Part shown: positions 4,604 through 29,164 of the stretch, piece after piece
Position numbering within the stretch: position 1 is the first letter of the stretch
Layout: each line of letters opens with the position of its first letter
NCBI GenBank assembly: GCA_030614005.1
Contig: JAUWKS010000012.1
Span: 30,001 to 62,000, forward strand
Length of the DNA stretch: 32,000 bases
Direction: 5' to 3'
Origin: Candidatus Heimdallarchaeota archaeon
Lineage (GTDB): Archaea; Asgardarchaeota; Heimdallarchaeia; JABLTI01
Notes under the pieces: generated by a model
Told to the model about the DNA's origin: nothing
Databases searched by the model: none
The model's input: only the letters and a program-made list of their open reading frames with translations
Translations under genes and position numbers: made by a program

Positions 4604-4714
4604 GGGCCGGTAGATCAGACTGGAAGATCGCCTGATTTGCAATAGATAAAAGGCTGCGGGCCAAATCTAAAAAATTTCAGGAGGCCGTGGATTCAAATTC
4701 CACCCGGTCCACCA
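4604..4714 (+). tRNA. tRNA-Ala(UGC) with a 34-nt intron (4642-4675) and encoded CCA
   Basis: Acceptor stem GGGCCGG/CCGGTCC with G3:U70; D stem GATC/GATC; anticodon stem CCTGA (4631-4635)/TCAGG (4677-4681); anticodon TGC at 4638-4640; T arm GTGGA-TTCAAAT-TCCAC; ACCA end. The intron at 37/38 folds via TAGAT/ATCTA and GGC/GCC. Confidence 0.92.
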
Positions 4715-4715
4715 C
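4684..4715 (+). repeat. tRNA-Ala 3'-end repeat, copy 1 (within the intact tRNA; att-like)
   Basis: GCCGTGGATTCAAATTCCACCCGGTCCACCAC; recurs at 21074, 24649, 27390 and 28419. Confidence 0.95.
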
Positions 4716-4829
4716 CTTCTTTTCTCTTTTCCACCTCGTTCTGTCCTTCTTTTTATTTTTATTGTGTGGTATCTGTTACCATTAAAAATTGGATTAATAG
4801 AACAAAATTATTTTTACTCATTTTAAAAC

Positions 4830-5465
4830 CTAGAGTTCGAAAAATCTCTTTAGCTTAACAGGATCAGCTCTATCTTCATCATCAATCAGTATAAACACAC
4901 CGACATTTCTTTTGATGTATTCCTTGCTCCAGTCCTCTTTTATCTTCCATCCTCCTGTTGCAAACACTCCGTTATCCATATCGTAGAAAGGAACATGGGT
5001 GTGGCTGAGGATAATTTTATCTGTCTGAAGAATCTTTGGAAGAAAGTCTATGCTGTTAGTTATTAACTGTTTCTTCATGTTAGTTGCCGCTTGATTCCAA
5101 GTTTCATTCACTCGTTTCTTAAGACCAATGTTATGTCCATGGCAGATGATAAACCGACCTTCTAGAGTATTTAGTTTCACATAGGGAACTACTTGGATGT
5201 CCGGTCTATCGAATAGCAAGTTTCCTTCGTGTCCCATCCCACCTGTTACAAAGACTAACTTTTCCTTAAATCCCTTCTCAATACTCCAGTCAACAAAAGA
5301 GTCTAATGCCTCCTTTCCTGTTTCATCGAAATTATCTAAGAAATCACCGTTCATAATAATTATATCTACTTTCTTTGACGCGCTTTCTAGCGCTTCTTTG
5401 AATTCATCCTCTAAACATCCTTCTGCACCTAGATGTACATCACCAACCACTATTGCAAGAGTCAC
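4830..5465 (-). CDS. Calcineurin-like metallophosphoesterase
   Basis: GDVH, NGDFLD, GGMGHE (in place of GNH[DE]), CHGH and SHTH motifs. The GTG start overlaps the helicase TGA stop (GTGA). Confidence 0.85.
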   Translation of the reverse strand: MTLAIVVGDVHLGAEGCLEDEFKEALESASKKVDIIIMNGDFLDNFDETGKEALDSFVDWSIEKGFKEKLVFVTGGMGHEGNLLFDRPDIQVVPYVKLNTLEGRFIICHGHNIGLKKRVNETWNQAATNMKKQLITNSIDFLPKILQTDKIILSHTHVPFYDMDNGVFATGGWKIKEDWSKEYIKRNVGVFILIDDEDRADPVKLKRFFEL

Positions 5466-7777
5466 CCCGCTAGATCCTCCTTTGTCTTTTGTACTAAAAA
5501 TGAGTTGACTATTCCAATAGAATCTTCTGATACATTAGCAAATAAAGGTAAGATTGACTCTTGAGTTTGCTTATTTATTAGAGCTTCATTAACTAGTTTC
5601 CTCATTTGTTCTGCTACTTTTTGGAATTCTCTAAAAAGAAATGCCGCATTGCCTAACTCTCCACCTCTATCATAAATAACTATTTTATTCTCGTGTACGT
5701 TCACCACTGTTCTAAAAGAGGGCTCTGAAATATGCAATGCTATTTCTGTACTCTTTAGAATAAGGTCTTTCAATAAACTTAGTGCTTCTCTTTTCTTTTT
5801 ATTGCTTGACTTCTTAGCTGAAAAAGTCACCTCTACTAAGAAACCACTAGTTTTCTCTTGCGAGTGGAAAACCTGCTCGTCTTGATGATTATCATCTATT
5901 TTGTTACCTGTTTTCGTGTACCTCACAACTTCAGCAGTTTCTCTTTGAATGACCATTTTGCCAAATCGAATATTTAGTTCAGCAAATCTAAACACTCGTG
6001 CCTGTTTGTCAATTTGGATAGAAGGAGCCTTTAGTTTGTTTTGTTCAATTGATGATTTATTAATTTGAAGCTTTTCTACAACAATCTTCCTCTCTAGCGA
6101 TTTTTCAACTCGGTAGATATCTCCCTGTCTTCCTAGGTAAAGGAGGTTACCCTCTAAAGCCGTTCGTAATATTCTTTGCTCCTCAATTTCACCAATTATC
6201 CGTTCAAAATTATTATCAAGACTTCTCTCAACTAGTAACCTTCTTTGCCCTGCAGATCGAATTTTGTGGTTTCGTATGAACTGTAATAGCTCTTGTTCAT
6301 CAGCTATAATTAATTCACGTCTATCAGCAGAAACTTTGTGATTTATAGTTCGAAGAATGCCGTCTGCTATTAGCATAACGATTGCTGTCTGAGTTATTTG
6401 CTTGCTTTCCAATGTTTTGCTGAAAGCAAGAATTTCTTCAATTGTTGTTATCCCCATATATATTCTGAATAACACAAAAGCTTTCATTCTTTGTAAGGAC
6501 TGTGAGTTAAACAATATTTGTTCAGCAGTGTTCTCTTCAAGAATGGTCTTTATTATTCGATAATTTTCCAAATAATACTTATCCAATACTCGTTCTGTGT
6601 CTAATATTAGTGTAAAATTCTTTTTCTGAGAAATATCTTGAAATCGCAATCTTCCCATTCTTTGTATTAGCCCATTCTTACCTGTTATCGGCCAGCCTAT
6701 ATTGATAATATGTTGAATTTTTGGTATATCTATTCCTAACTCAAGCAATGATGTAGTGAATAGAAATCGAAGTGATCCATCCATTATTCTCTTTATAATA
6801 TCTGCTTTATCAGATTCTGTTAGTTGACTATTGATACACATAAATGGTGAGTTTTGTTTTACTATCTCTAATGGTAAATCTGTTTTTATCATCAATTGTT
6901 CATTAAATTTCGCCACTAACTGACTGACTTTTTGCACACTATCAATGAATACTAAACATATTCCCCCTATCCTTTGAAGATGTGGGTCGATTCGCTCAAG
7001 TATGAATTGTTCTAGTGAATCCTTAGGAAGGATCATCACTCGAATCACTCCCCTTTTGCCTACAGCTTTTACAATCTTTGCGCTTGGCAAGAAATTATCT
7101 CGAAATGAAGCAACATCCTTTACTGTAGCTGAAGCAAGAATTACTCTTAACTTTGGATTCGTTTGTTTAAAGGCTGCAATAAACTCTCGAACATGAGTTA
7201 AATATCCTCCCGAACCTGCATGTATTTCGTCAAATACCATTATATCAGTTTGTTTAATCCAGTCGAGAAAACCATATTTATCTTCCTTGAAACGTCTGTA
7301 GAACAATTTATCTAAAGTTGCCAAGATGATCTGTGGTTTCTTCTTCTCAATTTGTTCCAAGTCTTGTTTTGATAGGTCGCCATTGTATCTGCTATAGGTG
7401 ATCTTTTTCCCTGTTGCTTCGAGAATATGATTGCAATAGCGAGTTAATCTTTGTTCCTGGTCAGCAGCAAGCTGCTTGGTTGGATAGATAATGATTGCAT
7501 TAGAAATCTTCTCATCTATTAATTCTTTAAGTATTGTAAATAGAAACACTTCTGTTTTTCCAGCACCAGTCCCTACTGTGAGAAAAAGGTCATCACCAGC
7601 AAGAATTTTCTTCATAGCTTCAATCTGGTATTTGTAAAGAGTGTAGGGAAACGCTTGTTTCAATGCTTTACCAAGCTTCACCATACCTACTTCAGGATCA
7701 TCAATATAATGATTAGTTTTCTCACTCTCTTGTGGTTGGATATTAAAGGTTGCTTTAACGATGCAGTGGTTTGGCAA
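5462..7777 (-). CDS. SF2 DEAD/DEAH-box helicase, Lhr/Hrq1(SftH)-like
   Basis: Q motif LYKYQ, Walker A GTGAGKT, YPTKQLAADQ, DEIH, SAT, TSLLELGIDI and QRMGR. No C-terminal Cys cluster of the DUF1998 type is seen. Confidence 0.9.
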   Translation of the reverse strand: MPNHCIVKATFNIQPQESEKTNHYIDDPEVGMVKLGKALKQAFPYTLYKYQIEAMKKILAGDDLFLTVGTGAGKTEVFLFTILKELIDEKISNAIIIYPTKQLAADQEQRLTRYCNHILEATGKKITYSRYNGDLSKQDLEQIEKKKPQIILATLDKLFYRRFKEDKYGFLDWIKQTDIMVFDEIHAGSGGYLTHVREFIAAFKQTNPKLRVILASATVKDVASFRDNFLPSAKIVKAVGKRGVIRVMILPKDSLEQFILERIDPHLQRIGGICLVFIDSVQKVSQLVAKFNEQLMIKTDLPLEIVKQNSPFMCINSQLTESDKADIIKRIMDGSLRFLFTTSLLELGIDIPKIQHIINIGWPITGKNGLIQRMGRLRFQDISQKKNFTLILDTERVLDKYYLENYRIIKTILEENTAEQILFNSQSLQRMKAFVLFRIYMGITTIEEILAFSKTLESKQITQTAIVMLIADGILRTINHKVSADRRELIIADEQELLQFIRNHKIRSAGQRRLLVERSLDNNFERIIGEIEEQRILRTALEGNLLYLGRQGDIYRVEKSLERKIVVEKLQINKSSIEQNKLKAPSIQIDKQARVFRFAELNIRFGKMVIQRETAEVVRYTKTGNKIDDNHQDEQVFHSQEKTSGFLVEVTFSAKKSSNKKKREALSLLKDLILKSTEIALHISEPSFRTVVNVHENKIVIYDRGGELGNAAFLFREFQKVAEQMRKLVNEALINKQTQESILPLFANVSEDSIGIVNSFLVQKTKEDLAG

Positions 7778-7779
7778 GT

Positions 7780-8298
7780 CTAATTCTCTCCTTGGATTTT
7801 AGCAGCGTATAAAATTGAAAATATTGAACTAAATTCATCCTTTAAAAAATCATTTATTTCTTCATCGGTTGTATATTCTTCTCCTTTCGAATAAAATTGG
7901 ATTATTCCAGAAATGCATTTTGTTATCGCTTCTTTTCTTCCCTCTCGAGATAAGAATCTGATATTTGATGAAAAATTTTGAATTATTATTTCTTCTTCAC
8001 GTTCTTTTAGAGCGATTTCTTTATTCAATTTTGTTCTATTATATAATTCAGCATGTGCTTGTGGACTAATTTGTAAATGTGGAGGTAATGCTTGCCCTAA
8101 TGCGAGACTGTTATAGAGTTGAACCAAATTATCTAATTGGGAACCTTCTTTCAATCCAAAACGATATTTGTACTTTTGTCCAATACGCCATATTAGACCT
8201 TTTTTCTTCAACTCCTGAAGAGTTAGATACGTTTCTGTAAGAGCTATACCTGCTCCATCAGCTATTACTTTGGCTTTTTTTTGGATAGGCAATTCCAT
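7780..8298 (-). CDS. Hypothetical protein with a probable N-terminal winged HTH
   Basis: AKVIADGAGIALTETYLTLQELKKKGLIWRIG follows the TrmB/wHTH pattern. Confidence 0.5.
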   Translation of the reverse strand: MELPIQKKAKVIADGAGIALTETYLTLQELKKKGLIWRIGQKYKYRFGLKEGSQLDNLVQLYNSLALGQALPPHLQISPQAHAELYNRTKLNKEIALKEREEEIIIQNFSSNIRFLSREGRKEAITKCISGIIQFYSKGEEYTTDEEINDFLKDEFSSIFSILYAAKIQGEN

Positions 8299-8334
8299 AT
8301 TTTATGAAATCACCTAACAAATACCATATCACTT

Positions 8335-9831
8335 TTATCGTATCCATTCTATTTCAAGCTCCTCAAATCGATTGCAATATTCAATTACTCTAGGAGAAAA
8401 TTTATTCGGTTGCAGGTTATTTTCTTCCAGAAAATCCTTCTCTCGGTCTTCAAAAAGGAGAGACGAAGATTTAGAACAAGTAAGGTTTTGTTCTACTTTC
8501 TTAGCAATTCGCTTATTTGGGTAATACACTAACGGTTTAAAATTCGCTTTTTTGATCTCCTCTTGACAGATCCTAAAGGCTATGTCCTTCATTTGTTCCC
8601 TTTCTTCTATGTCTAATGAAATCCATTGAGCAGATAATCGCCAGAATTTCACAGGTATCTCTCTTTCACAATCTATTATCTTTACCATTAATTGCTTTTC
8701 AAGAAATTTCTGATGAATAGCTGAGAGTAAATTATCAAATTCAACAATAAATTGCTTACAAGCTTCTCTGAAGGTTCGATAGGTTTTTCCATTGAAGTAA
8801 CATGGTTCACTAAATAATTGTTGTTTGAGCTTGTAAAGCATCTCTTCTCCTCTTTTGTTAACAACATAGACAATCTCCCCTTTAAATACATCAAGTTTAT
8901 CAACTAATGAATTAGTTATTCTTTTGTCAAGAATAGCATGTACTAGCTTTATGTGTCCTGCGAACTTTAACGCTTCACACAAATCAAGCACCAGTCCCAT
9001 CCATGATAGATCAGAGTAATAACTGAAATGACTAAATCCCCCAACACCTAGATACTTTAAATCTAATTCATCAAGTATATTCCACAATTCCTCCTCACAG
9101 AGAATGAACATATAATTAAACAGAACATCTCCTTTTGTACATGCCATTGTTTTGTAATTGCCTGTTGTTCTTTTATGTAGATATAATCGATTGGACACTC
9201 GATTGCTGATAGCAAAATCAAAAGTGCTTATTAGTTCATTAGTTACCATCCAAGTAATATCTGCTGCTGATGCTTCTGAAAGATTACAGAGAACACTTGT
9301 ATTACAATTATATCCATAAAGATAGGCATCACATATTGCATCAACAAAAAGCTGCCACTTTTGTTTTTCTGAAGAGAACCCTCGCAATGTTTGAACCAAG
9401 GCTAATCGATTAGATAGATTCGACCGCCAAAAGACATTGTTTAATCCAAAAGAAAATCGCATTACATCTACCGTAAGAGCTCTTTGACAGTCCATTCGCT
9501 CAACTTTAAACCATCCTTGAGGAGAAGAAATGCGAACATAATGGCACCCTGCAGAAACTAATTGTTGTTTTATCTCCTCAGAAATTCCCTGATAGTCATA
9601 TACGAATTGTATTACTGACAAATTATATTGAAGCTTGTCTACATGAAGATTATAATCTTTAATAATCACTTGTTGTCCAGGCAGTATTTGAAAACCTAAG
9701 CTCACTTTATTCTTTTTCCGGGCTTCATCAAGCGTTAATCCAGTAAGTTTATACACTTCTTCATTGAAGATATGTTGATTATCCTTAACACATAATATAT
9801 ACTGTTGATCATCCTTTCTACTTTTACTCAA
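8335..9831 (-). CDS. Highly diverged Cas1-like endonuclease/integrase with a C-terminal extension
   Basis: Cas1 motifs in the expected order: N-terminal beta domain (LSVIQFVY..ISEEIKQQLVSAGCHYVRISSPQGW), SEASAADITW, DVLFNYMFIL...GFSH...GLVLDLCE, and VNKRGEEMLY...GKTYRTFR. Recognised by eye only. Confidence 0.68.
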   Translation of the reverse strand: MSKSRKDDQQYILCVKDNQHIFNEEVYKLTGLTLDEARKKNKVSLGFQILPGQQVIIKDYNLHVDKLQYNLSVIQFVYDYQGISEEIKQQLVSAGCHYVRISSPQGWFKVERMDCQRALTVDVMRFSFGLNNVFWRSNLSNRLALVQTLRGFSSEKQKWQLFVDAICDAYLYGYNCNTSVLCNLSEASAADITWMVTNELISTFDFAISNRVSNRLYLHKRTTGNYKTMACTKGDVLFNYMFILCEEELWNILDELDLKYLGVGGFSHFSYYSDLSWMGLVLDLCEALKFAGHIKLVHAILDKRITNSLVDKLDVFKGEIVYVVNKRGEEMLYKLKQQLFSEPCYFNGKTYRTFREACKQFIVEFDNLLSAIHQKFLEKQLMVKIIDCEREIPVKFWRLSAQWISLDIEEREQMKDIAFRICQEEIKKANFKPLVYYPNKRIAKKVEQNLTCSKSSSLLFEDREKDFLEENNLQPNKFSPRVIEYCNRFEELEIEWIR

Positions 9832-9832
9832 T

Positions 9833-11875
9833 TCAATTCCTCCTCATTTTCTTTCTCTTTTGAATCAATTTGAATGTAGTATTACACATTGAACAGCTAA
9901 CAGGTTTCAATCCCTGAGCTGGTCTATCATCTGTGCCAAAATCTTCAATTACAATTTCTCTCCCCTCCACTAAACAAGTAGAACATAAATAAGCATATAT
10001 CTCTTTTTTATCTGCTGAATATCCCACAAAACTTCTGGTAATTGCATCATAGAATTCTTCAACAGTATAAATTATAGTTACCTTTTCTTTTCTTATAAAA
10101 TGCTTGCAACCAACAGTTGTACTTCTGAGTGTTTTGGTAGCTCGAATATGGTTCTCACTTGAAACTTTTCGTTCAGCTATATTTATTGCTCTTCGCCAGA
10201 ACATACAACGTCTTTTTTCAAACCAATGACAATCCCCACAAACGACTTTGAAATGTGCCGGGAAATCTTTACTTGTATAATAATCAAGACTTCTCCCCAA
10301 GGGTGGTTTGGCTGTTAGCGTCTTCACAGGATACCCACTTTTAGATAGACTTTGGATTGCTTGCTTTGCTTCAAAAGGATTAATGGTAAGCATTGAGCAA
10401 ATTTTGTTTTGAGTAATAGGAGACTCAGTATTTGCCAGCAGTTCTTTTAGTGCTCGTTCAATTGTTTGTCTATCCATTTTCTTATTTATTGGTGATTCCT
10501 CAACATCATAGGATTTTTGCAAAACTCTATTCAAGAGCTTTAGACTTTCTCTTGAATCTTGAGTCATCTGATCTCTAAAGCAATTTAACATCTGGGTAAT
10601 TTGGAAAAGTACATAACTATTATTAGAAGCTGCTAGAATACTAGCAATGGTTTCCTCTTCATCTTTGAGAATATCTAACCTACCGATTAAAAATTGCAAA
10701 TCATCAAATTGTAATTTCCCTCGTGTAAAATCGCTAAATATTTCCTGTACTAGTTCCCATGTAATGATGTCATTCTCAGTTTTTTTTCGGATAGTTCTCA
10801 AAAACATCATAGGATCGTTTAGCATCTCTTCAAAGTAGGTTGAAGCAATAATGTATTGTCTTCCAAATGTAGTCAAAGTGAAACGACTATAACTACTTTG
10901 ATCTTTCTTTACTAAAGCAAATGCTCCTAGATGTCTTTCTTGCAAACTCTCAAATAGGGATATATTTTGGAAGTATTTCGTATGGAAAATTAATTCAGTA
11001 AGGTGCTGTCTCATTTCATCATCTGTTTTCTTTTTCTTTGCTTGATATATTCGAAAGTACGTTGCTTTCTGTAATCGTTCAATGAGTTGTTTTTTCGAAG
11101 GGGATCCTGAATATAAACAAAACAGAATAATACTCAAGAAAGCATCTTGTAATGCGTCCTCGTTTAATTCTTGATATATAGCTCTCACAGCCTCATTTGT
11201 TGAGATCATTATGTTATTAAATCCTCTTTCAATTTCTTCGGCAGGAATCAATCCGGTAGAAATAAAATGCTTTCGTACATGTGTTCTCTCTCGTTGAGGT
11301 AGAAGCAAAAGGATTGGGTCAATGTTATCAGAAATCCAAGACTTGCGAGCTCTATTAAGCGACTTATTCTCATCAAATGGATCAATGAAAATATACGCAT
11401 TGACGATTGGCAGCTGGACTTTTGCTTTCAAAGCATCGTCTCGACTCTTTCGATATAACAGATTTCGAGTCAACGTGTTATAACTTGTTATGATTAGCTT
11501 ATTCGCTGCTAGAGGGTGACTGTTTCCTTTAAATTTTGAAAACGTAGAAGCAATCTTCATCCCTGCAAGAGTTTTTTTGGAGGTCTCTGCAGTAACTTGA
11601 TCCTCATCGTAATTAGCATAATTATAGATTTTCTTGGCTTGTTCAGAGGTTCGAACAATAATCATTGCTGTTTGGTCGGATAATCTAGCTGAAAGTAAAG
11701 CTATAGTGGTAGCTAATTGTAACTGGTCTTCAGGGAGAATTTCATAAAAAAATATGTCTGTTTCACATAGAACCGTTTTTCGAATAATGCTTAAGTTATC
11801 AACACAAGTAAATGGATAATCTCGAAAGATAGTGGTTATGCTAATGGGTAATTGTGTTCTATAAGTTGTTATCAT
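9833..11875 (-). CDS. Hypothetical protein: degenerate Ski2/Hel308-like helicase segment, winged helices and Cys-rich C-terminus
   Basis: MIIVRTSEQAKKIY, LIITSYNTL and YIFIDPFD resemble decayed motifs Ia, Ib and II. ATYFRIY...FTLTTFGRQYIIASTY resembles the Hel308 winged helix. The C-terminus has CGDC..C..C plus CSTC/CSMC. No Walker A. Confidence 0.45.
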   Translation of the reverse strand: MITTYRTQLPISITTIFRDYPFTCVDNLSIIRKTVLCETDIFFYEILPEDQLQLATTIALLSARLSDQTAMIIVRTSEQAKKIYNYANYDEDQVTAETSKKTLAGMKIASTFSKFKGNSHPLAANKLIITSYNTLTRNLLYRKSRDDALKAKVQLPIVNAYIFIDPFDENKSLNRARKSWISDNIDPILLLLPQRERTHVRKHFISTGLIPAEEIERGFNNIMISTNEAVRAIYQELNEDALQDAFLSIILFCLYSGSPSKKQLIERLQKATYFRIYQAKKKKTDDEMRQHLTELIFHTKYFQNISLFESLQERHLGAFALVKKDQSSYSRFTLTTFGRQYIIASTYFEEMLNDPMMFLRTIRKKTENDIITWELVQEIFSDFTRGKLQFDDLQFLIGRLDILKDEEETIASILAASNNSYVLFQITQMLNCFRDQMTQDSRESLKLLNRVLQKSYDVEESPINKKMDRQTIERALKELLANTESPITQNKICSMLTINPFEAKQAIQSLSKSGYPVKTLTAKPPLGRSLDYYTSKDFPAHFKVVCGDCHWFEKRRCMFWRRAINIAERKVSSENHIRATKTLRSTTVGCKHFIRKEKVTIIYTVEEFYDAITRSFVGYSADKKEIYAYLCSTCLVEGREIVIEDFGTDDRPAQGLKPVSCSMCNTTFKLIQKRKKMRRN

Positions 11876-11881
11876 CCTACT

Positions 11882-12520
11882 TCACTCCTGGTTTAGCAAT
11901 AGCTCTTCTAGGTGTTCGGGCAGAGAAAGCAACTCCTCGCCAACAAACCGATCGATGTACTCCGCCATTTCTATCTCGAGTGATTCAGGAGAGCTCTCAT
12001 CAATAATCGAAACTGGGAACTTGTCCAGAAATTCCTCACTCAATTCTTTCACTGTTTCTTGTTTGTTTGTCACTCTTTCAATAATAGTTTCTAAGTGCTT
12101 CTTGCTAGTTTTAAGTTGCAGTAAAAATGAATCATCAGGTTCTTCTGCGAGTTGACTTTGGATTTGCATTTTTATATTGAATTCTGGTTGACTGATTATC
12201 AAAATAAATTGGAGAAGGTTATTATTTATCTCAAAAAGCAATGGTTGAGTGTCTGATCGTGGTAGTTTTTCAATTATCAACCATTCAGTTAGTTTCTTGA
12301 CTTTCTGTTTGAATGTCATCAAGCTCATTTTCTCTAGCACTTGATTGTACAATGACAGTACGGATGGGTACGTCACTTGACCGAATTTTATTAAATTATT
12401 TACTAGCAACTCACAGATAACTAGCAAATTAGCAGTGATTTTAATGTCTGGATTATCCAATTCCACTGAATTCGCTGGAACTGATTGTTGAAAAGCACTA
12501 GTGTGAGTCATTTCCGTCAA
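11882..12520 (-). CDS. Hypothetical protein with an acidic C-terminus; first gene of the operon
   Basis: 212-aa ORF (TTG start; ATG at 12511 is an alternative) ending 6 bp before the next gene. No motif recognised. Confidence 0.7.
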   Translation of the reverse strand: MTEMTHTSAFQQSVPANSVELDNPDIKITANLLVICELLVNNLIKFGQVTYPSVLSLYNQVLEKMSLMTFKQKVKKLTEWLIIEKLPRSDTQPLLFEINNNLLQFILIISQPEFNIKMQIQSQLAEEPDDSFLLQLKTSKKHLETIIERVTNKQETVKELSEEFLDKFPVSIIDESSPESLEIEMAEYIDRFVGEELLSLPEHLEELLLNQE

Positions 12521-12575
12521 TAATTTAAAGGAAAATTATGTTTTTAAAGTACTAAAAGTATAAAAAAACGAAAAG

Positions 12576-12839: not shown

Positions 12840-12909
12840 CTCTTACTTCTGAGCTGTGAATTTTTCTCAAAATTTTTTTGCTTCTTAAAATTGCAGAGTT
12901 ATTCTTAAA

Positions 12910-21105: not shown

Positions 21106-21219
21106 TTTCTTTTCTCTTTTCAGACTCGTTCTGTCCTTCTTTTCATTTTTATTTTGTGCTATCTGTTACCATTAAAATTTAGACTAATAGGACAAAATCA
21201 TTTTTGTTCATTTTAAAAC

Positions 21220-21718: not shown

Positions 21719-21939
21719 ACAATTAGAAGAACTCAACAAATTTTTTTTCAAAACTTTATTGATTTCGTCTTGTGTTTTTAATGATAACATGTTTTATGAT
21801 TGCTTATCCGACAAAATCTAAAAGGTTATTCAGTAAGTACAATCTAACATAGGTATCAAGAATTCTTAAATATAATTACCTTGAAGTAGTACATGAACTC
21901 TTTTGATTAGGAAAAGAGCGGAGGGATTAAAATTTAAAA

Positions 21940-22854
21940 ATGAAAAAGAAATTAGGAATTTTGATGATAGTTTTTCTATTTGTTGGTATATTGAGCACAT
22001 ATATTGATGTGCGTGGAGCAACAAACTTTACTGGAACAGTAGAAAGTGAATATAGTAATCCATTGAGTAATACAACAATTACACTAGCTGATTGTTATTT
22101 TAATATCCTTGGTTCAACTACAACAAACAGTCAAGGTGAATATAGCCTTTCTGTGACATTAAACGGTAACTCACCATATTATTTATCTGCTGCAAAGAAT
22201 TACCGTTGGGACACTGATACAAAAACAGTCTATTCTGGAGGGACAAATGATTTCGAACTTGATGCGATTACTGAGAAGATTGCTGTCTTTTTCTATGCAT
22301 ATGACGCATGCAATGATGATACAATAGATACATACGAAGAGATTCTAGATGATGAGGGGTATACAAAATATTTCAGATTTGCTAATAGTGATGATGTTAG
22401 CGATGATTGTGATACAGTTGATGACTATGAACGTCCTGCTGATACTCTTTTCTGTTATATTATTGGTCACGGAGAATACGATAATTCTGAAGAAAAGTCT
22501 TACACCTATTTCAAATCAAATGAAAATACACAAGTTTACTCAGACACATTTGAATCCTATATGGATAATTGGGATTCGGCTCGAAAAGGTCTGCTTGTTG
22601 ATTCCTGTTATTCAGGTACTTGGGCAACAGATTTTACTACAAGTCCCTATTTAGCAATGTCCTCTGCAGATACTGCTAATGAAGCAGACTTCCGTTCAGG
22701 ATATTCAAATCAAGAAGGAGAATTCTCATACTACTTCTTTGAAGCTGTTGATGCAGGAGATACAGCAGTAGAAGCATGGGAAGCTGCAGAAGATGAGTGC
22801 TCTGATCAGAATCCAGAAAAAAGCGACTATTCAAGTTACACTTGGTTCAATTGA
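21940..22854 (+). CDS. Secreted clan-CD (caspase/legumain-like) cysteine peptidase with an N-terminal carboxypeptidase-regulatory-like beta domain
   Basis: Signal peptide; GTVESEYSNPLSNTTITL...TTTNSQGEYSL; catalytic dyad candidates IIGHG and LVDSCYSG; EGEFSYYF. Confidence 0.7.
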   Translation: MKKKLGILMIVFLFVGILSTYIDVRGATNFTGTVESEYSNPLSNTTITLADCYFNILGSTTTNSQGEYSLSVTLNGNSPYYLSAAKNYRWDTDTKTVYSGGTNDFELDAITEKIAVFFYAYDACNDDTIDTYEEILDDEGYTKYFRFANSDDVSDDCDTVDDYERPADTLFCYIIGHGEYDNSEEKSYTYFKSNENTQVYSDTFESYMDNWDSARKGLLVDSCYSGTWATDFTTSPYLAMSSADTANEADFRSGYSNQEGEFSYYFFEAVDAGDTAVEAWEAAEDECSDQNPEKSDYSSYTWFN

Positions 22855-22861
22855 CAGAAAT

Positions 22862-22892
22862 AAAGGAATCTTTTGGGATTCCTTTTCTTTTA
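22862..22892 (+). terminator. Hairpin plus T-tract after the peptidase gene
   Basis: AAAGGAATC-ttttgg-GATTCCTTT followed by TCTTTT. Confidence 0.5.
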
Positions 22893-23059
22893 TTAAAAGA
22901 GAAAAAAAATAAGTGGCAAATCAAAAAACATCAATTAAAAAAGGTCTAGCACTAAAAAAAATAATAGATAGCAACAATATTCATTAGTGAATATAACGAA
23001 AATTTTGTGAAAATAACCTTTTTTAGTAAAGCACTTAATTAACATTTGGGGATTAAAAG

Positions 23060-24622
23060 TTGAGAAAAAAAAGTCATTTAATTCTGGTCTGTTGCATAGG
23101 TTTTGTACTAGTTTTTGGGAATCTAATACCTATACTACAGCAAAACAGTATTACTAACCAAAACGAAAAAAATATTCCATATGTAAATGCTAACTTGTCT
23201 GCAAATCTTACGATTGATTTCAGTACTTTTCTGGGGGGGAAGGATAAAGATCTTGGTTATAGTGCTGCAATAACCGACAAAAGAGAGTGTTATGTCACAG
23301 GGCTGACAGAATCCAATGATTTTCCCACAAAAAATGCTTTTGATGAAACTCTCGGTGGTAATCTCGATGCATTTATCACTAAATTTGCTTTTGATGGTTC
23401 CCTGCTCTTTAGTTCTTATCTTGGAGGGAGTAGTCGGGATCGAGCTTTTGCTATTGATGTGGGGGATGATGGAAGCTGTTATGTTTTGGGAAATACTAAT
23501 TCAAGTAATTTTCCAATCAGAAATGCATTTAACAGTACTTTTAGTGGTTATGAAGATGTTTTTGTTTCAAAGTTCTCATCGGATGGTGTTATGCTTTGGA
23601 GCACCTATTTTGGTGGCAATGGTTTTGATAGAGCAGAAGGAATCTCTGTTGCCAAAGATGGGAGTTGCTATATCACAGGGAGAACCGCATCTACTAATTT
23701 TCCGACAAAAGAAGCCTATAGTGATACGTGTAATGGTGGGTATGACGTTTTTGTTTCCAAGTTTGATATAGAAGGGGGGTTACTTTGGAGCACATATTTA
23801 GGAGGGAGTTATTCTGAGCGTGTAGGAGATATTGTTGTGTCAAACGATGGCAGTTGTTATGTGACTGGTGAAACTGACTCAGTTGATTTTCCAGTGAAGG
23901 ATGCATTTGATGACTCATATAATGGTGATTCGGATACTTATATAACTAAATTTTCCACTGAGGGTTCACTTTTGTGGAGTACCTTTCTTGGTGGGGCGTG
24001 GTGGGATGTAGGCCATGGTATTACTGCTGCAAGTGATGGAAGTTGTTATGTGACAGGTTATACGGTTTCTAGTGAATTTCCAGTACAAAATGCCTTTAAT
24101 GAGACGTACGATGATTGGGGAGATGCGTTTGTTGCCAAATTTTCTGCAAGTGGAGGTTTGCTATGGAGCACATTTCTTGGTGGAAATGGTCCTGACAGAG
24201 GTTACGCAATTACCACATCAAAAGATGATAGTTGCTATATTACAGGTTATACCGCATCAACGAACTTTCCGACTAAAAACGCTTATGATTATACTAAAAA
24301 CGATGGCTATGATGTCTTTGCATCAAAATTCTCATCAGATGGTGTTTTGCTTTGGAGCACTTATCTTGGAGGAAGCAATACAGATGAAGGTCGGGATATT
24401 GCTGTAACAAATAACGGTTATTGCTATATTGTGGGTAATACGCATTCAGCTGATTTTCCAGTGATAAATGCGATTGATCGTGAAAGTACCAAGAGTGAAT
24501 GTTTTGTGACGAAATTTATTGAGCCACTCGAACGTGGACAACCAACATTTTTGTATGGGTTCCTAGGTATAATGACTGTTGTACTGCTTGCAGTTATTGT
24601 TCTTTACATAAAACGCAAATGA
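23060..24622 (+). CDS. SBBP-repeat (beta-propeller) surface protein with N-terminal signal and C-terminal TM anchor
   Basis: About seven repeats of WST[YF]LGGxxxDxGxxIxxxxDGSCYVTGxTxSxxFP; C-terminal hydrophobic helix followed by KRK. Confidence 0.88.
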   Translation: MRKKSHLILVCCIGFVLVFGNLIPILQQNSITNQNEKNIPYVNANLSANLTIDFSTFLGGKDKDLGYSAAITDKRECYVTGLTESNDFPTKNAFDETLGGNLDAFITKFAFDGSLLFSSYLGGSSRDRAFAIDVGDDGSCYVLGNTNSSNFPIRNAFNSTFSGYEDVFVSKFSSDGVMLWSTYFGGNGFDRAEGISVAKDGSCYITGRTASTNFPTKEAYSDTCNGGYDVFVSKFDIEGGLLWSTYLGGSYSERVGDIVVSNDGSCYVTGETDSVDFPVKDAFDDSYNGDSDTYITKFSTEGSLLWSTFLGGAWWDVGHGITAASDGSCYVTGYTVSSEFPVQNAFNETYDDWGDAFVAKFSASGGLLWSTFLGGNGPDRGYAITTSKDDSCYITGYTASTNFPTKNAYDYTKNDGYDVFASKFSSDGVLLWSTYLGGSNTDEGRDIAVTNNGYCYIVGNTHSADFPVINAIDRESTKSECFVTKFIEPLERGQPTFLYGFLGIMTVVLLAVIVLYIKRK

Positions 24623-24645
24623 TTTCAGTTTTCCATTTCAAAAAA

Positions 24646-24680
24646 GAGGCCGTGGATTCAAATTCCACCCGGTCCACCAC
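24646..24680 (+). repeat. tRNA-Ala 3'-end repeat, copy 3
   Basis: GAGGCCGTGGATTCAAATTCCACCCGGTCCACCAC, identical to 4681-4715 (35 bp). Confidence 0.95.
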
Positions 24681-24768
24681 TTCTTCTAAGTATAAACTGT
24701 CCTATTAGTTTCACTTGTTTTGTCTTCATTAAAAATAATTATAAACTGTTTATTGTTAATACAATTCC

Positions 24769-27372
24769 ATGAGAGAGGTTAGTTTAAAGCGTTTTAAGGA
24801 ACTTTTATTGGAAATAAAAAAATTCAAAATTTTTCGTTTTATCGGTTATTTAACCATCCCTTTTTTCTTTGGCTTTTATATTTTAAACAAGACTAAAACT
24901 AAATTATCTTTTCTATATAGTGAAAAGAAAAGAATCTTACAAGATCTTGTTATTGATATTGAATATAATTTCGCATCTCTTCAGAAGAGAAATCAAGAAA
25001 TCGAAATTAATGATACTTACCTTATTTATTCAGAGAAAGAAGAATGCCTTTCCAAAATTCGAAACTTTATCAGAAAATTGGGATCTATTCAAAGATATTT
25101 TGATATTTTGCCAAACGAAATTATCACTTTTTGTGAGCAATTAGAAGATGAAGCTTTTATAATATTAGAGAAGACCGAACAATATAATGAACAATTTATT
25201 CAAAGAAAAAAAATTGAATATGAGAATCTCTTTAAGAGAGAAAATTTAATCTTAGATGATGAACAACAAAGAGCAATTATAATTGACGATAAACATAATT
25301 TAGTTGTCGCTGGAGCAGGATCAGGTAAAACAGAAGTCCTGACCACAAGAATTGGATATCTTATTAAAAGGAAAACTGATAGAATTAAACCAGAACGAAT
25401 TTTAGCTTTGGCTTTTCAAAAAAAAGCAGAAGAGGTAATAAAGAAACGATTGAAAAAAAGATATAATATTGATGATGTTGAAATCAGAACTTTTCATTCA
25501 TTTGGAAAAAGAATAATTGAAGATTATGCTAAAAAAAGAAAAATTGATGAATATGCTAATAAAAAATTCATTAATCCTAAGAAACTAAATCCTAATTGTG
25601 AAGATGAATCCAAATATCGGAATTTTATTAGAAAAATTTTTGAAAAAATAAGAGATAATGATGTAAAGTACCAAAATCAAATTCTCTTATTTATGAAACA
25701 TTTTTCTGATGAAAAAATCATAAAAGTAGAAACTGATTTTGAAGAAAAAGAAGAATTTTATGAATACCAAAGAAACATGACTTATACAACTTTAAATGGT
25801 ACTAAAGTGAGAAGTGAATCTGAACGATCAATAGCTAATTTCTTCATAAAGCACGAAATTAATGGTAACAAAATCAATATTTTATATGAAGAACCAGCGA
25901 AATGGATGGCATATATGGATGAAGAGGGAAAAGAACACACACCAAATCCAGATTTCTATTTCCCTTATTTTGATATTTATTTGGAACATTGGGCAATTGA
26001 CAAGGATGGAAATGTACCTAAGTGGTTTTCTGGAGAAAATCCAACGGAAAATTACAGGAAAGGTATGGACATAAAAAGAAGTAAATTTAAGGAAAATAAT
26101 AAATTTCTAATCGAAACAACAGAAGCAGAATTTAAGAGTATACCAATTAACGAATTATTGAAAGAGAAATTTCTTACAGCACTAAAAAAGAAAAACCCTC
26201 AGAAAGAGTTTAAGCTATCGGCAATACCATATAAAGGACTGGTAGAAAAAGTCTGGGATGAATGTAGAGCATTTGTTAATAGTTTACCATTGAATATTTC
26301 TAGATATATTACAATAGCAAAAACCTATGGATTAACTATTTCAGATATTGAGAAACGATTACAGAAGAAGAAGAATTGGTCACTAAAACAAATTGCTTTT
26401 GGCAAAATAGCTTTGAGAATATATCAGGAATACGAAAATAAATTAGATAAAAGTTATTCCATTGATTTCGGTGATATGATAAATAATGCTACAAAGTATC
26501 TAAATGAAAACAAAGATTTCTTTTTAGACAAATATGATCACATCCTCATTGACGAATATCAAGATATTAGTGCTCAGAGATTTCTTTTAATTGAAGCATT
26601 AATGAAAAAAAATCCAAAATGTAAACTATTCTGTGTAGGTGATGATTGGCAGAGTATTATGGGATTTGCTGGGTCCAATCTTAACTATTTTATTCACTTT
26701 TATAGATATTTCGATCATCCTGTCAGGACAGATTTGATAAAAAACTATCGTAGCATAAAATCAATCGTAGATGTTGGAGCTACTGTAATTGAAAATAACA
26801 CCAATCAAATTAAAAAACAGACAATTGCTAATAAAGAGATGGAATTGCCTATTTTGGTTTTTTCCTCAAGACATAACAAAGATTATCCAGATAAATACTA
26901 TAAACAAATCACGTCTCATGCTTTGGAGAAAATAAATGAATTGGTTAAAAAAGAGGGTTACAAATATGATGATTTTATGATTCTTTTAAGGATTGCAAAG
27001 AATCCTAAATTAAGAAAGTATCTTAATTCGGATAATGCTTATGGAATCCCTATTTCTGCAGAACCTGCTAAATCAAATTGTGTTCACATATTATCTGTTC
27101 ATAAAAGCAAAGGACTAGAATCGAGAGTTGTAATTCTGTTAAATGTAGATAAGGGATTATATGGATTTCCTTGTGAACTTGAGAACCCAAAAATCTTTGA
27201 AACGGCAATAAAAGAAAATGATGGATTAAGAGAACAAGAGGAAAGAAGATTATTTTATGTAGCATTAACTCGAGCAAAAGAGCAAATAATTATCTATACA
27301 CAAAAACAATCAGAAAGTAGTTTCATTGCAGAAATAGAAGAATTTATTCAAAAAAAGGAGTTATATTATTGA
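24769..27372 (+). CDS. UvrD/helicase IV-like SF1 helicase (sole gene of module 3)
   Basis: AGAGSGKT, TFHSFG, IDFGDMI, IDEYQD, VGDDWQSI, NYRS, HKSKGLE and EERRLFYVALTRAK; internal PDFYFPYFDIYLEHW domain. Confidence 0.93.
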   Translation: MREVSLKRFKELLLEIKKFKIFRFIGYLTIPFFFGFYILNKTKTKLSFLYSEKKRILQDLVIDIEYNFASLQKRNQEIEINDTYLIYSEKEECLSKIRNFIRKLGSIQRYFDILPNEIITFCEQLEDEAFIILEKTEQYNEQFIQRKKIEYENLFKRENLILDDEQQRAIIIDDKHNLVVAGAGSGKTEVLTTRIGYLIKRKTDRIKPERILALAFQKKAEEVIKKRLKKRYNIDDVEIRTFHSFGKRIIEDYAKKRKIDEYANKKFINPKKLNPNCEDESKYRNFIRKIFEKIRDNDVKYQNQILLFMKHFSDEKIIKVETDFEEKEEFYEYQRNMTYTTLNGTKVRSESERSIANFFIKHEINGNKINILYEEPAKWMAYMDEEGKEHTPNPDFYFPYFDIYLEHWAIDKDGNVPKWFSGENPTENYRKGMDIKRSKFKENNKFLIETTEAEFKSIPINELLKEKFLTALKKKNPQKEFKLSAIPYKGLVEKVWDECRAFVNSLPLNISRYITIAKTYGLTISDIEKRLQKKKNWSLKQIAFGKIALRIYQEYENKLDKSYSIDFGDMINNATKYLNENKDFFLDKYDHILIDEYQDISAQRFLLIEALMKKNPKCKLFCVGDDWQSIMGFAGSNLNYFIHFYRYFDHPVRTDLIKNYRSIKSIVDVGATVIENNTNQIKKQTIANKEMELPILVFSSRHNKDYPDKYYKQITSHALEKINELVKKEGYKYDDFMILLRIAKNPKLRKYLNSDNAYGIPISAEPAKSNCVHILSVHKSKGLESRVVILLNVDKGLYGFPCELENPKIFETAIKENDGLREQEERRLFYVALTRAKEQIIIYTQKQSESSFIAEIEEFIQKKELYY

Positions 27373-27389
27373 AAATATTCAACAACATA

Positions 27390-27420
27390 CCGTTGATTCA
27401 AATTCCACCCGGTCCACCAC
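27390..27420 (+). repeat. tRNA-Ala 3'-end repeat, copy 4 (one mismatch)
   Basis: CCGTtGATTCAAATTCCACCCGGTCCACCAC; G>T at 27394. Confidence 0.93.
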
Positions 27421-27440
27421 TTCTAAAATCCTCACTTTTT

Positions 27441-27788
27441 TCAGTCTATTATTCTCACTACTTTTTCTGTTACTATTATGAATTTGTTTGGTATTTTCTC
27501 TGCATATTTCTCTATGAGTTGTTGTATTATTCTTATCTTATTCTCCGTTCGTTCATTTTTTAGTCGTAATAGGATTACTCCTTTGTGCTGTTTTTTTTGT
27601 CTTATAACTAATTCTCCAAAATCCTTGTCATTGGTTAGTAGGATGTATTTTTCCTCATATGCTTTTGCGATTATTTTTTCATCACTCATTCCTCTTGCTT
27701 CGTCGTAAATTGAAAAAACTTCATGACCATTTTTTCGCAACCAATCAGCTACTCTTGGTCCTGTGCATTCATCTACTAGAAATCGCAT
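27441..27788 (-). CDS. DUF5615 family PIN-like toxin
   Basis: MRFLVDEC...GMSDEKI...ILLTNDKDFGEL...GVILLR. Confidence 0.9.
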   Translation of the reverse strand: MRFLVDECTGPRVADWLRKNGHEVFSIYDEARGMSDEKIIAKAYEEKYILLTNDKDFGELVIRQKKQHKGVILLRLKNERTENKIRIIQQLIEKYAEKIPNKFIIVTEKVVRIID

Positions 27789-27789
27789 A

Positions 27790-28038
27790 TTATTGTGCCT
27801 CTTCTATAATCGGCATAAAAGTAGTATTTTCTAGTGTTTCTGAAGCATAAAATAGACAAGCTAAAATATCCTCTTTGGTTAGATCTGGATATTCTTCTAT
27901 TATCTCCTTTATTTCTGCTCCATTTGCTAACAGATTCAATATGAATTGCACTGTTAATCTTGTTCCTTTAATAACAGGTTTTCCGGTCATTATTTTCGGA
28001 TTTATTGTTATCCTTTCTAGAATTTCCTTTCGCTCCAA
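27790..28038 (-). CDS. DUF433 family antitoxin
   Basis: RITINPKIMTGKPVIKGTRLTV...EEYPDLTKEDILACL; lies directly upstream of the DUF5615 gene. Confidence 0.92.
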   Translation of the reverse strand: MERKEILERITINPKIMTGKPVIKGTRLTVQFILNLLANGAEIKEIIEEYPDLTKEDILACLFYASETLENTTFMPIIEEAQ

Positions 28039-28414
28039 GGATGATCAATTCTCCTTTAATTTTTTTATTCACGTGTAATATATACAATGTACTTGTTGTT
28101 ATAGTTTTCTTTGTTTCTTTAATACTTTTAAAGTAGAAGTGATTCTTCAGTTGGAGTTCGCTTATTCATATTCCACTGTTCGGCTATTTTTTTCTCTTCG
28201 TAATTTTGATTCAAAAGTAAATTTTTTTTCTTTTTTTATCCATTTATCATACGTTGTTTCAAGTCATTATTTTGATTATACCTTTTTTCATTTATTGGTA
28301 ATGCATCTGCCACTTAAATAACGTCCAAATTCGATGTTTGTACATCAATTATCTATCAAATTTCTTTTTTAAACCTCTAAACGAAAAGTGTTAATAAAAT
28401 AAAGTATCTCAACT

Positions 28415-28449
28415 GGAGGCCGTGGATTTAAATTCCACCCGGTCCACCA
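28415..28449 (+). repeat. tRNA-Ala 3'-end repeat, copy 5 (one mismatch)
   Basis: GGAGGCCGTGGATTtAAATTCCACCCGGTCCACCA; C>T at 28429. Confidence 0.93.
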
Positions 28450-28496
28450 ATTTTTCTTCATCAATAGTTTTTTATCTGTGTATTACCAATATATAG

Positions 28497-28724
28497 ATGA
28501 TATATATGGGTTACAAAACTCTTAGTGTTAGTGATGAGATTTACGATCTTCTTTGTGCTATGAAAGAAGATAATGAATCTTTCAATGAACTCTTTACTCG
28601 GCTCATTCGTGGTAGTGGCAAACATATATTAAAGTTTCATGGACAGCTTTCTGATTCAGCTGATTTTGATAAGATTATGGCCCGTATTTCAGATGAGCGA
28701 AAAAATGAGCAGGAACGTCTCTAA
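28497..28724 (+). CDS. vapB: VapB-type archaeal antitoxin
   Basis: KTLSVSDEIYDLL..MKEDNESFNELFTRLI; 2 bp upstream of a PIN gene. The start may be ATG 28506. Confidence 0.82.
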   Translation: MIYMGYKTLSVSDEIYDLLCAMKEDNESFNELFTRLIRGSGKHILKFHGQLSDSADFDKIMARISDERKNEQERL

Positions 28725-28726
28725 TC

Positions 28727-29125
28727 ATGGCTTCTTTTGTTCACTTTGACACTAATCTTGTTGTAGATTTTTTTAAGGGAACTTTTCCTCGAGCTGAATT
28801 TGAACCTTTGCTTTCACAGAATGTTGTCATGATTAGCGTACTTGTTGAATATGAATTGAGACTTGGTCAGAAATTATCTCAAAATCAAGATATTAAACAA
28901 TTACTTGCGGATTTTCTTGAATCCGTGCTCATAATTCCACTCTCATCTGAAATTGTGGCAAAAGCATGTGAGATACAATCACGACAAATTTCCTTAGGCA
29001 AACGATTACCATTAGTTGATCTCTTGATTGGAACAACATCTATCGTTCATAATGCAAAATTGCTTTCAAATGGTAGTGATATGCAAAAACTTATTGCATA
29101 TGGACTTGAAGTAGTTTCTTTTTAA
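28727..29125 (+). CDS. vapC: VapC PIN-domain toxin
   Basis: FDTNLVVDFF, SVLVEYEL, LVDLLIGTTSIVHNAKLLSNGSD. Confidence 0.88.
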   Translation: MASFVHFDTNLVVDFFKGTFPRAEFEPLLSQNVVMISVLVEYELRLGQKLSQNQDIKQLLADFLESVLIIPLSSEIVAKACEIQSRQISLGKRLPLVDLLIGTTSIVHNAKLLSNGSDMQKLIAYGLEVVSF

Positions 29126-29151
29126 TCTAAAAGTTTCGCTCGTTTAATATT

Positions 29152-29164
29152 GTGGATTCAAATT
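29152..29164 (+). repeat. Probable remnant (copy 6) of the tRNA 3'-end repeat at the right boundary of the island
   Basis: GTGGATTCAAATT, a 13-bp exact match to the T arm, located between vapC and the core-like GTPase gene. Confidence 0.6.

Follow-up and report, generated by a model that had tools for sequence, protein, structure and literature searches.

A stack of repeat-bounded modules at a tRNA-Ala gene of a Heimdallarchaeota archaeon and the mobile element family beside it

How does a tRNA gene come to be followed by a series of gene modules, set off from one another by copies of its own 3' end, when none of the recombinases known for landing at tRNA genes is encoded among them? The question is raised by a 32,000-nucleotide stretch of the genome of a Candidatus Heimdallarchaeota archaeon (GenBank assembly GCA_030614005.1, contig JAUWKS010000012.1, positions 30,001 to 62,000), hereafter the window. 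The source genome (G000) is metagenome-assembled, 3.6 Mb in size, in 126 contigs and with 33% G+C. In the window, a tRNA-Ala(UGC) gene is followed by a 24.5-kb island, and we consider it probable, at roughly three chances in four, that the 3' end of this tRNA is a repeatedly used attachment (att) site and that the island is an accretion of about six modules. The comparison set comprised the relatives G003, G004, G005, G006, G008, G009 and G010 together with JACCLD (on a 1.55-Mb contig) and JAHLVY (on a 2.26-Mb contig, viewed at the tRNA-Ala locus only); loci compared are given L numbers.

Copies of the tRNA-Ala(UGC) 3' end and the limits of the island

A 25-mer running from the T-loop to the CCA end of the tRNA is found exactly at 4690, 21080, 24655 and 27395 and with one mismatch at 28425, always on the plus strand, and gave no match in 100 shuffles. 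Aligned in register, the copies are about 35 nt long (4680-4714 and equivalents) and extend from the end of the anticodon stem and the variable loop through CCA. An initial annotation, made from the letters alone, had described co-oriented copies spanning roughly the variable loop to CCA, and its coordinates were right to within a few bases. Past CCA, copies 1 and 2 also have a pyrimidine tract of about 17 nt in common, and the same tract stands behind three copies in G010.

4604-4714, plus strand: tRNA-Ala(UGC), the presumed integration target (attB/attL); ARAGORN with introns allowed
4680-4731, plus strand: repeat copy 1, the last 35 nt of the tRNA and the pyrimidine tract of ~17 nt; sequence comparison
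21070-21104, plus strand: repeat copy 2, 34/35 identical to the tRNA tail
24645-24679, plus strand: repeat copy 3, with an orthologous copy between the same flanks in G010
27385-27419, plus strand: repeat copy 4, last 25 nt exact and first 10 nt degenerate; bridged by an independent contig
28415-28449, plus strand: repeat copy 5, one mismatch, in the T-loop
29152-29164, plus strand: very likely a 13-nt remnant of a sixth repeat, T-stem/T-loop part; genome-wide 13-mer search

Nor is the motif scattered, as it might be if it were independent of this tRNA. With up to three mismatches allowed, the 25-mer occurs in the 3.6-Mb genome at the five window sites and at the tRNA-Ala(CGC) gene on another contig, and nowhere else. 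The 13-mer that the initial annotation had taken for the rest of a sixth copy is found in the genome only at tRNA-Ala genes, at their copies and at 29152-29164; since it has no unrelated occurrence, it is very likely a genuine piece of the repeat. None of the other tRNA genes among the 34 found in the source genome has several co-oriented extra tail copies. The tail of tRNA-Arg(TCG) has an exact 24-nt copy 6 kb away on the opposite strand (G000:C7:19117 and 25156), which may be a second gene or an inverted att site.

The limits of the island are set by the syntenic locus in the relatives, between a CPBP-type protease gene and a GTPase gene. In G006 and G003 this site is empty: the CPBP gene, the tRNA-Ala and the GTPase gene follow one another directly, and CCA is separated from the GTPase stop by 33 nt. 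Positions 4715 to 29164 of the window, 24.5 kb, are therefore inserted DNA. Otherwise the locus is filled, and the contents of the stack differ. G010 has an island of 25 kb with three further repeat copies, G009 has two modules, JAHLVY has two to three small modules, and JACCLD has the same modules as JAHLVY and in addition a large element, here called element A. The deep tandem stack at one tRNA is thus borne out by empty sites in two congeners and different stacks in four other relatives.

The tRNA gene itself is canonical, with a G3:U70 pair and a 34-nt intron after position 38 (4642-4675), as given by ARAGORN with introns allowed. It is missed by default ARAGORN and by Rfam at the gathering threshold because the intron hides it. 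The intron measures 34 nt in the window, 31 nt in G010 and 36 nt in G009, and there is none in the orthologous gene of G006, G003, JACCLD and JAHLVY; it is a presence/absence polymorphism inside one genus.

Element A and the order of the stack

Element A occupies the place next to the tRNA in the window. Its genes are read towards the tRNA, apart from a small MazE-like open reading frame (ORF).

4715-17856, minus strand: element A, ~13 kb, right-end repeat lost, scar at ~17725-17856 (Pfam, PADLOC, NCBIfam; comparison with G010)
4830-5465, minus strand: metallophosphoesterase (Pfam/PADLOC/NCBIfam)
5462-7777, minus strand: DEAD/DEAH helicase (Pfam/PADLOC/NCBIfam)
7780-8298, minus strand: winged helix-turn-helix (wHTH) protein (Pfam/PADLOC/NCBIfam)
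8335-9831, minus strand: 498-aa protein with a predicted Cas1 fold, candidate integrase of element A (predicted fold)
9833-11875, minus strand: helicase-like protein of 680 aa (Pfam/PADLOC/NCBIfam)
11882-12520, minus strand: 212-aa protein
12910-14556, minus strand: WhiA-like LAGLIDADG-HTH protein (Pfam/PADLOC/NCBIfam)
14560-15009, minus strand: 149-aa protein
15022-17220, minus strand: Mrr/NERD-type nuclease, 732 aa (predicted fold)
17273-17440, plus strand: MazE-like ORF, the sole plus-strand gene of module 1

The clearest evidence on how such an element arrives comes from JACCLD and JAHLVY. Identity between the two is 98.9% on one side of the tRNA and 99.5% on the other, and they differ by one 13.86-kb element A, which in JACCLD is inserted directly after CCA, with 34 nt present twice. 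The host tRNA copy is identical in both genomes. In the distal repeat of JACCLD, 6 of the first 20 nt deviate from it and all of the last 14 nt agree, and the deviations alter the T-stem on both strands, with partial compensation. As the flanks are 99% identical, these differences cannot be drift, and the tRNA-like segment came with the element, as its attP. A plain 34-nt target duplication is excluded by the same differences, and their confinement to the first 20 nt places the exchange in about the last 14 nt of the tRNA. Element A thus brings its own tRNA-like attP, and this site sits between two convergent gene ends. The same variant T-arm is found in other displaced copies in JACCLD and G005, which would fit elements adapted to another tRNA-Ala isoacceptor and crossing over in the shared acceptor end.

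Element A is not confined to one tRNA. Its gene set directly adjoins an intact tRNA-Ala(UGC) in the window, G010 and JACCLD, a tRNA-Pro(UGG) at L010 (in G005) and a tRNA-Lys(CUU) at L012, L019 and L020, and at these sites the phosphoesterase stop lies about 10-115 nt from the CCA end. The element is bounded by repeats in G010, L010 and JACCLD; at the tRNA-Pro it is closed 14.2 kb away by a tRNA-Pro tail copy identical at 27 of 30 positions. A census of 11 genomes of the same genus and 20 outside it found element A in 6 of the former and none of the latter, with three full copies each in G004 and G005 and one each, plus weaker partial matches, in G010 and G008. Between the window and JACCLD, element A is 87% identical over 10.7 kb and its Cas1-like protein 93% identical in amino acids, with host flanks at 68-75%; between the window and G010 the corresponding values are 65-70%, 44% and 82-88%. 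By these identities, the phylogeny of the element conflicts with that of its hosts, and element A moves horizontally.

Several further A-type arrangements were seen. The operon occurs without an adjacent intact tRNA at L009, L011 and L014, the last with a possible acceptor-stem remnant only. Past the 5' side of tRNA-Lys(CTT) at L020 (6560-6822), the 3' end of the phosphoesterase gene recurs as an inverted fragment, as though this tRNA had a second A-type element pointing at it from the opposite side. On G005:C19 (L023, 1545-2970 and 14435-19020), a tRNA-Ala(GGC) has behind it two displaced tails that show the variant T-arm, and an A-type left half on the same contig starts about 520 nt past a tRNA-Glu(UUC), which may be a further target. 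In G010, a related 10-kb element at tRNA-Ala(GGC) shares the trio of nuclease, small protein and LAGLIDADG protein with element A.

The remaining modules and the chromosomal flanks are as follows.

17857-21069, minus strand: MmeI-type (type IIG) restriction-modification module, gene at 17897-20815 (Pfam MmeI domains; PADLOC REase_MTase_IIG, E=0)
21105-24644, unstranded: module 2, relic left end of a second A-type element followed by cargo genes
21940-22854, plus strand: secreted peptidase-like gene of module 2
23060-24622, plus strand: SBBP beta-propeller gene of module 2
24680-27384, plus strand: module 3, UvrD/GajB-like SF1 helicase, gene at 24769-27372 (Pfam UvrD; PADLOC GajB, 8e-55)
27420-28414, minus strand: module 4, toxin-antitoxin pair of DUF5615 (PIN-like, 27441-27788) and DUF433 (27790-28038) (Pfam)
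28450-29151, plus strand: module 5, VapB (28497-28724) and VapC (PIN, 28727-29125) (Pfam)
3671-4534, plus strand: left chromosomal flank, CPBP/Rce1-like membrane protease gene (weak Pfam Rce1-like match)
29244-30527, minus strand: right chromosomal flank, Arf/Rag-like small GTPase gene (Pfam)

Orthologues of the CPBP gene adjoin the same tRNA in G003, G005, G006, G009 and G010. The flanks are Asgard-typical, with a weak longin-domain match (791-2161) on one side and the Arf/Rag-like GTPase, which has many paralogues in the genome, on the other.

The initial annotation had counted five modules. The serial stack stands, while the count is better put at about six, since the first module is a composite one. 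The G010 counterpart of the 13-kb part has at its end a nuclease-like gene and a degenerate tRNA-tail copy, which precedes the MmeI region (92.6% identical to that of the window); the window has 132 nt (17725-17856) where G010 has about 970 nt including the degenerate copy. We infer that module 1 consists of the ~13-kb element A and a 3.2-kb MmeI-type module and that the repeat which separated them was deleted. The MmeI-type gene and the module 2 cargo (17857-20995 and 21760-24682) are 92-93% identical to G010, compared with 82-88% for the flanks, and this higher identity suggests stronger constraint or later exchange between the lineages.

The order of the modules can be accounted for by a simple cycle. 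An incoming element would carry a tRNA-like attP and recombine with the tRNA within about its last 14 nt. This would rebuild the tRNA and shift the tail copy, together with all older insertions, away from it, so that the newest module would always be found next to the tRNA. Read outwards from the tRNA, the order is element A (~13 kb), the MmeI-type module, the module with the older A relic, the GajB-like helicase, the DUF433/DUF5615 pair and VapBC. Relics of older A copies lie deeper in the stack, in module 2 of the window and as a 185-nt relic near the far end in G010. Distal modules are common to distant lineages (VapBC to JACCLD and JAHLVY, the toxin-antitoxin pair to G009), whereas the MmeI module, module 2 and the helicase are common only to the sister G010, and element A differs even between sisters. 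Such layering agrees with addition at the tRNA and later losses.

Two features of module 2 may be added. Its 520-aa SBBP protein is encoded in part by six head-to-tail 189-nt units (23366-24372), 61-85% identical to one another, which correspond to the propeller blades. A marine-sediment contig from a public run of another study (X5) matches the module 2 cargo exactly, with 1523 letters in place of 286 nt of the window (21708-21995) and with a version of the phosphoesterase relic that has diverged from that of the window.

Candidate recombinases and rival explanations

Which enzyme made the junctions? The initial annotation had remarked that modules 2-5 encode no mobility gene, and indeed domain searches found no integrase, transposase or recombinase domain in them. 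More generally, no island ORF matches the tyrosine or serine recombinase models (PF00589, PF00239), PolB or a transposase; the two PolB genes of the genome are on other contigs, outside the island. The absence of a conventional mobility gene extends to module 1, where the only gene of an integrase family appears to be that of the 498-aa protein, which Pfam misses: the Pfam Cas1 model (PF01867) has no match to it, nor anywhere in the window or the whole genome.

This protein is predicted to have the Cas1 fold. Its AlphaFold2 (AF2) model has a pLDDT of 68.5; the top 50 Foldseek matches are all Cas1 or casposase (best 6opm, E 4.6e-7), and VIA gives Z 19.1 against 4n06 (Cas1 of A. fulgidus) and Z 17.9, with a root-mean-square deviation of 3.3 over 253 aa, against 6opm (the M. 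mazei casposase), the next fold following at Z 5.6. E186, H268 and D283 are invariant in the family and line up with three motifs (EG, FLH and DxxE) that genuine Cas1 proteins of Heimdall archaea have, the hhalign alignment being used solely for the register of these three motifs. The family comprises 19 database proteins, and every one whose source is named comes from Heimdallarchaeota. The 627-aa HTH protein encoded by the 10-kb element at tRNA-Ala(GGC) in G010 matches the Cas1-like profile weakly, at 15 bits, and has the same three motifs. It is one of several weak matches located inside larger ORFs of 537-1228 aa (G005:C106, G010:C19, G008:C162, G005:C11, G010:C6 and L007:10740-12623), and together these hint at a wider, very diverged Cas1-like superfamily in the genus. 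A profile search of PDB sequences with the Cas1-like alignment returned noise only.

Other proteins of element A were considered and set aside. The 732-aa protein was examined as a hidden recombinase, and its folded model is a Mrr/NERD/Can2-like nuclease. The right-end proteins of A in JACCLD (364 aa) and G010 (289 aa) look like relatives of PD-(D/E)xK nucleases, beside a MazE-like gene, rather than integrases. It is quite possible, and our tentative leaning, that element A owes its recombination to its Cas1-fold protein, perhaps aided by the helicases, nucleases and wHTH proteins encoded nearby.

A number of points weigh against this assignment or against the simple cycle proposed above. Cas1-family integrases join 3'-OH ends and make short target duplications, and to our knowledge none carries out an exchange between attP and attB. 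The Cas1 homology is weak by sequence, with no Pfam match and an hhalign probability of 1.6% against genuine Heimdall Cas1, and the loop with the catalytic His is modelled with low confidence. Element A has neither the PolB nor the terminal inverted repeats of casposons; none were found in the three complete A elements, where end-to-end local alignment scores fell within the range of shuffled sequences. Stacks of tRNA tails exist in G009 and G006, where no Cas1-like gene was found (genome completeness 84-86%). The best-preserved repeats are not in every case those closest to the tRNA, and the most distal copy in G010 has G010's own T-stem variant, so that strictly proximal addition is not the whole history and deletions or exchanges between copies also occur. 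Finally, in this metagenome-assembled genome the junctions of copy 2 have no independent bridging contig.

The serious rival is a conventional integrase supplied in trans. On this account, somewhat unlikely in our view, a tyrosine-type enzyme, from an unassembled or extrachromosomal virus or plasmid or in the form of the host's Xer-like protein, made every junction, and the Cas1-fold operon is cargo, for example a defence or DNA-repair module, whose place at the tRNA-proximal end is a coincidence. The att anatomy is indeed classical for tyrosine integrases: the element brings a tRNA-like attP, exchange takes place close to the 3' terminus of the acceptor stem, and the repeats measure 30-50 nt (PMC6563490, PMC4383910). 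Stacks also occur in genomes with no detected Cas1-like gene. Heimdall proviruses with integrases at tRNA genes have been described (PMC8813620), and the operon helicase matches models of defence helicases such as BrxH and Cas3. Yet no such integrase is found on any stack-carrying contig in six genomes. The sole tyrosine recombinase of the source genome is a conserved single-copy Xer-like gene, present once per relative, that looks like the host Xer. Moreover, element A has the behaviour of an autonomous unit, being multicopy, horizontally mobile and found at several tRNAs, but never with an integrase, and its operon is always att-proximal, in the usual place of integrase modules.

The small modules raise a separate question, namely whether anything without an integrase ever moved. 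Modules 2-5 are bounded by att-type repeats and carry no recombination or transfer genes, as is expected of cis-mobilisable elements (CIMEs). If decay alone were at work, an improbable reading, each would be the trimmed remnant of a once complete, integrase-bearing element. Trimming does occur. Module 2 opens with the truncated left end of an A element (550 nt at 75-89% identity to the start of module 1, the non-coding part at 89% and the truncated phosphoesterase at 21220-21690 at about 75%) and is known from a metagenome in a variant with 1.5 kb more at this relic; G010 keeps its 185-nt relic of another A, and a boundary repeat and gene have been deleted inside module 1. Against this, module 4 is a unit of about 1 kb that is bounded by repeats on both sides in two species and at two tRNA-Ala genes, with a common left junction: in G008 it spans 1.07 kb from tRNA-Ala(GGC) to a displaced copy, and the homology (77.7%) begins in the repeat and takes in the left junction. 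It also occurs in the G009 stack (82% identical), beside a repeat copy on G010:C36 and between Arg-like tRNA-tail copies in G005.

VapBC is likewise repeat-bounded in two distant lineages, module 5 being 78.5% identical to a module at the same tRNA in JACCLD and JAHLVY; the module 3 helicase is 83% identical to that of G010. The module genes stop within 17-26 nt of the repeats, and independent trimming to the same neat units is less likely than their movement or retention as units. Because module 4 recurs between repeats at other tRNA sites, the small integrase-less modules appear to have been kept, and probably moved, as units. They would be cassettes mobilisable in cis or in trans, or else trimmed remnants that retained usable att sites.

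Casposon-like transposition is a more doubtful explanation. Here the Cas1-fold enzyme would join linear DNA ends to staggered cuts about 14 nt apart at the tRNA end; the true duplication would be ~14 nt, the T-arm-like right end of the element would act as a "leader mimic" that recreates the target, and small modules would be captured in the same way, giving a stack like a CRISPR array. A 14-nt duplication beside a tRNA-like element end is compatible with the JACCLD polymorphism, where exactly the last 14 nt are identical, equal to the 13-15-nt duplications of casposons (PMC8464041), but the repeats measure 34-52 nt and are partly element-borne. The Cas1 fold is closest to casposase, family 2 casposons likewise insert at the 3' ends of tRNA genes and occur in tandem (PMC6563490), and the new insertions are tRNA-proximal. 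All window copies, however, share at least 35 nt with the host tRNA, several of them 17 nt more past CCA, which a 14-nt duplication leaves unexplained. There is also no evidence of element-like ends on the small modules, and element A itself has no PolB or terminal inverted repeats.

The assembly was cross-checked with Logan contigs (assembled, short and of low depth) from four public runs. Independent contigs span copy 4 (27173-28419) and connect copy 5, by way of the remnant, with the GTPase gene (28420-29307), and copy 3 with both its flanks recurs in the independent G010 assembly. The public-run contigs end at copies 2 and 3, since a 35-nt repeat can be expected to interrupt k-mer assemblies, and neither support nor contradict these two junctions; the junctions of copy 2 are therefore known from this assembly alone. 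Small "joints" in the Logan contigs, with sides of 21-34 nt, were judged untrustworthy. An artefact of assembly, or a segmental duplication limited to the tRNA region, as a metagenome-assembled genome and the breaking of De Bruijn contigs at copies 2 and 3 might suggest, can hardly be the explanation, given the bridging contigs, the unique sequence between the copies, and the stacks of this kind that follow the same tRNA in G010, G009, JACCLD and JAHLVY, where the modules are partly orthologous and keep their order.

If accretion at the tRNA is taken together with the Cas1-fold protein, a bolder picture might be drawn, which we consider speculative. The protein and its helicase and nuclease partners would be a recombinase that lands DNA at tRNA tails, always beside the intact tRNA, and so builds a polar array. 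By analogy with CRISPR, and just as speculatively, the tRNA 3' end could be seen as the repeat, the tRNA body as the leader and whole genes as the spacers. Element A might then be, and this too is a long shot, a casposon cousin without PolB or inverted repeats that stands between a transposon and a CRISPR adaptation module, possibly with an attP-like site.

Significance and comparison with known systems

Stacks of islands at tRNA genes are a known route for collecting defence and addiction genes, and this array is a clear Asgard example. What is new is the agent: a horizontally mobile family of ~14 kb that lands precisely at the ends of no fewer than three kinds of tRNA, has none of the recombinases known for such landing, and carries a deeply diverged Cas1. 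Should the Cas1-fold protein be the integrase, it would widen the range of Cas1-family activities and offer a living example of gene-sized, polar, repeat-separated acquisition, bearing on the casposon origin of CRISPR adaptation; should it not be, an unrecognised site-specific recombinase would be hidden in these archaea. JACCLD and JAHLVY provide a natural strain pair, with the element present and absent, flanks 99% identical and att sites defined to the base.

Three familiar kinds of array can be set aside. Integrons also have a one-sided stack of small, mostly single-gene cassettes between recombination sites, the newest by a fixed primary site. Here there is no IntI, there are no attI or attC hairpin sites and no common promoter logic, and the cassettes lie in both orientations and measure 0.7-13 kb; with no tyrosine recombinase present and repeats that are tRNA tails, an integron is ruled out. 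So is a CRISPR array, since the "spacers" are 0.7-16 kb of genes and there is no Pfam Cas1 or other cas gene in the window or the genome. An SSV-type element with a self-splitting integrase is ruled out as well, as no substantial ORF crosses any repeat in the window.

The tRNA islands made by tyrosine integrases (Islander/TIGER; crenarchaeal and thaumarchaeal integrated mobile genetic elements, iMGEs) resemble this one in that the tRNA is regenerated, a displaced 3' fragment marks the far end and arrays form by re-use of the site. Crenarchaeal elements typically have repeats of 29-69 nt, and re-use arrays at one att site in archaea are known for tyrosine-recombinase elements and casposons (PMC6563490). 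By the Islander rule each member of a tandem has its own integrase, and 4 of 3919 islands lie in tandems of three or more (PMC4383910); the present stack departs from this rule, with no PF00589 or PF00239 match in the window. The mobile elements that Wu et al. described at tRNA genes of Heimdallarchaeum do not include the element A family (PMC8813620).

Family 2 casposons (AciBoo-C1 of Aciduliprofundum boonei, that of Methanosarcina mazei, and NitNCS1-C1) share with element A an archaeal host, a Cas1-family protein as integrase, here a candidate, and insertion at tRNA 3' ends with tandems possible (PMC6563490, PMC8464041). Casposons have PolB, terminal inverted repeats and 13-15-nt target duplications, whereas element A has neither PolB nor inverted repeats. 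It differs from them also in a 34-nt tRNA-like att that is not identical to the host's and in a Cas1 relative too diverged for the Pfam model.

In the additive flexible islands of Alteromonas, cassettes likewise sit at tRNA sites, some with a partial tRNA repeat, their content varies among close strains, identical cassettes occur across species, and toxin-antitoxin and defence functions are common (PMC4898812). These are bacterial, and their mechanism was left open ("illegitimate recombination"; PMC4898812), whereas here every cassette is repeat-bounded and an element-borne att has been demonstrated.

The closest counterpart is found in the ssrA islands of Dehalococcoides, with over a dozen ssrA repeats and integrase-less members (McMurdie et al. 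2011, PMC3146451). There, as here, one essential small-RNA gene is followed by co-oriented copies of its 3' end that bound tandem islands varying by strain, and some islands have an att-proximal, reverse-strand, multi-gene integration module while others have none and are read as cis-mobilisable, following the cited "accretion" model of integrative and conjugative elements (ICEs) and CIMEs (PMC3146451). In Dehalococcoides the serine recombinase DsiB can be identified, the repeat is 20 nt and the host is bacterial (PMC3146451). In the Heimdallarchaeota island, no serine or tyrosine recombinase is found in the island or the mobile fraction, the att-proximal protein has a predicted Cas1 fold, and the modules go down to single toxin-antitoxin pairs. 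Deep stacks with integrase-less members are thus rare but documented in bacteria, and depth alone is not new; what this locus adds is a variant that combines a Cas1-linked element family without a known recombinase and very small repeat-bounded cassettes.

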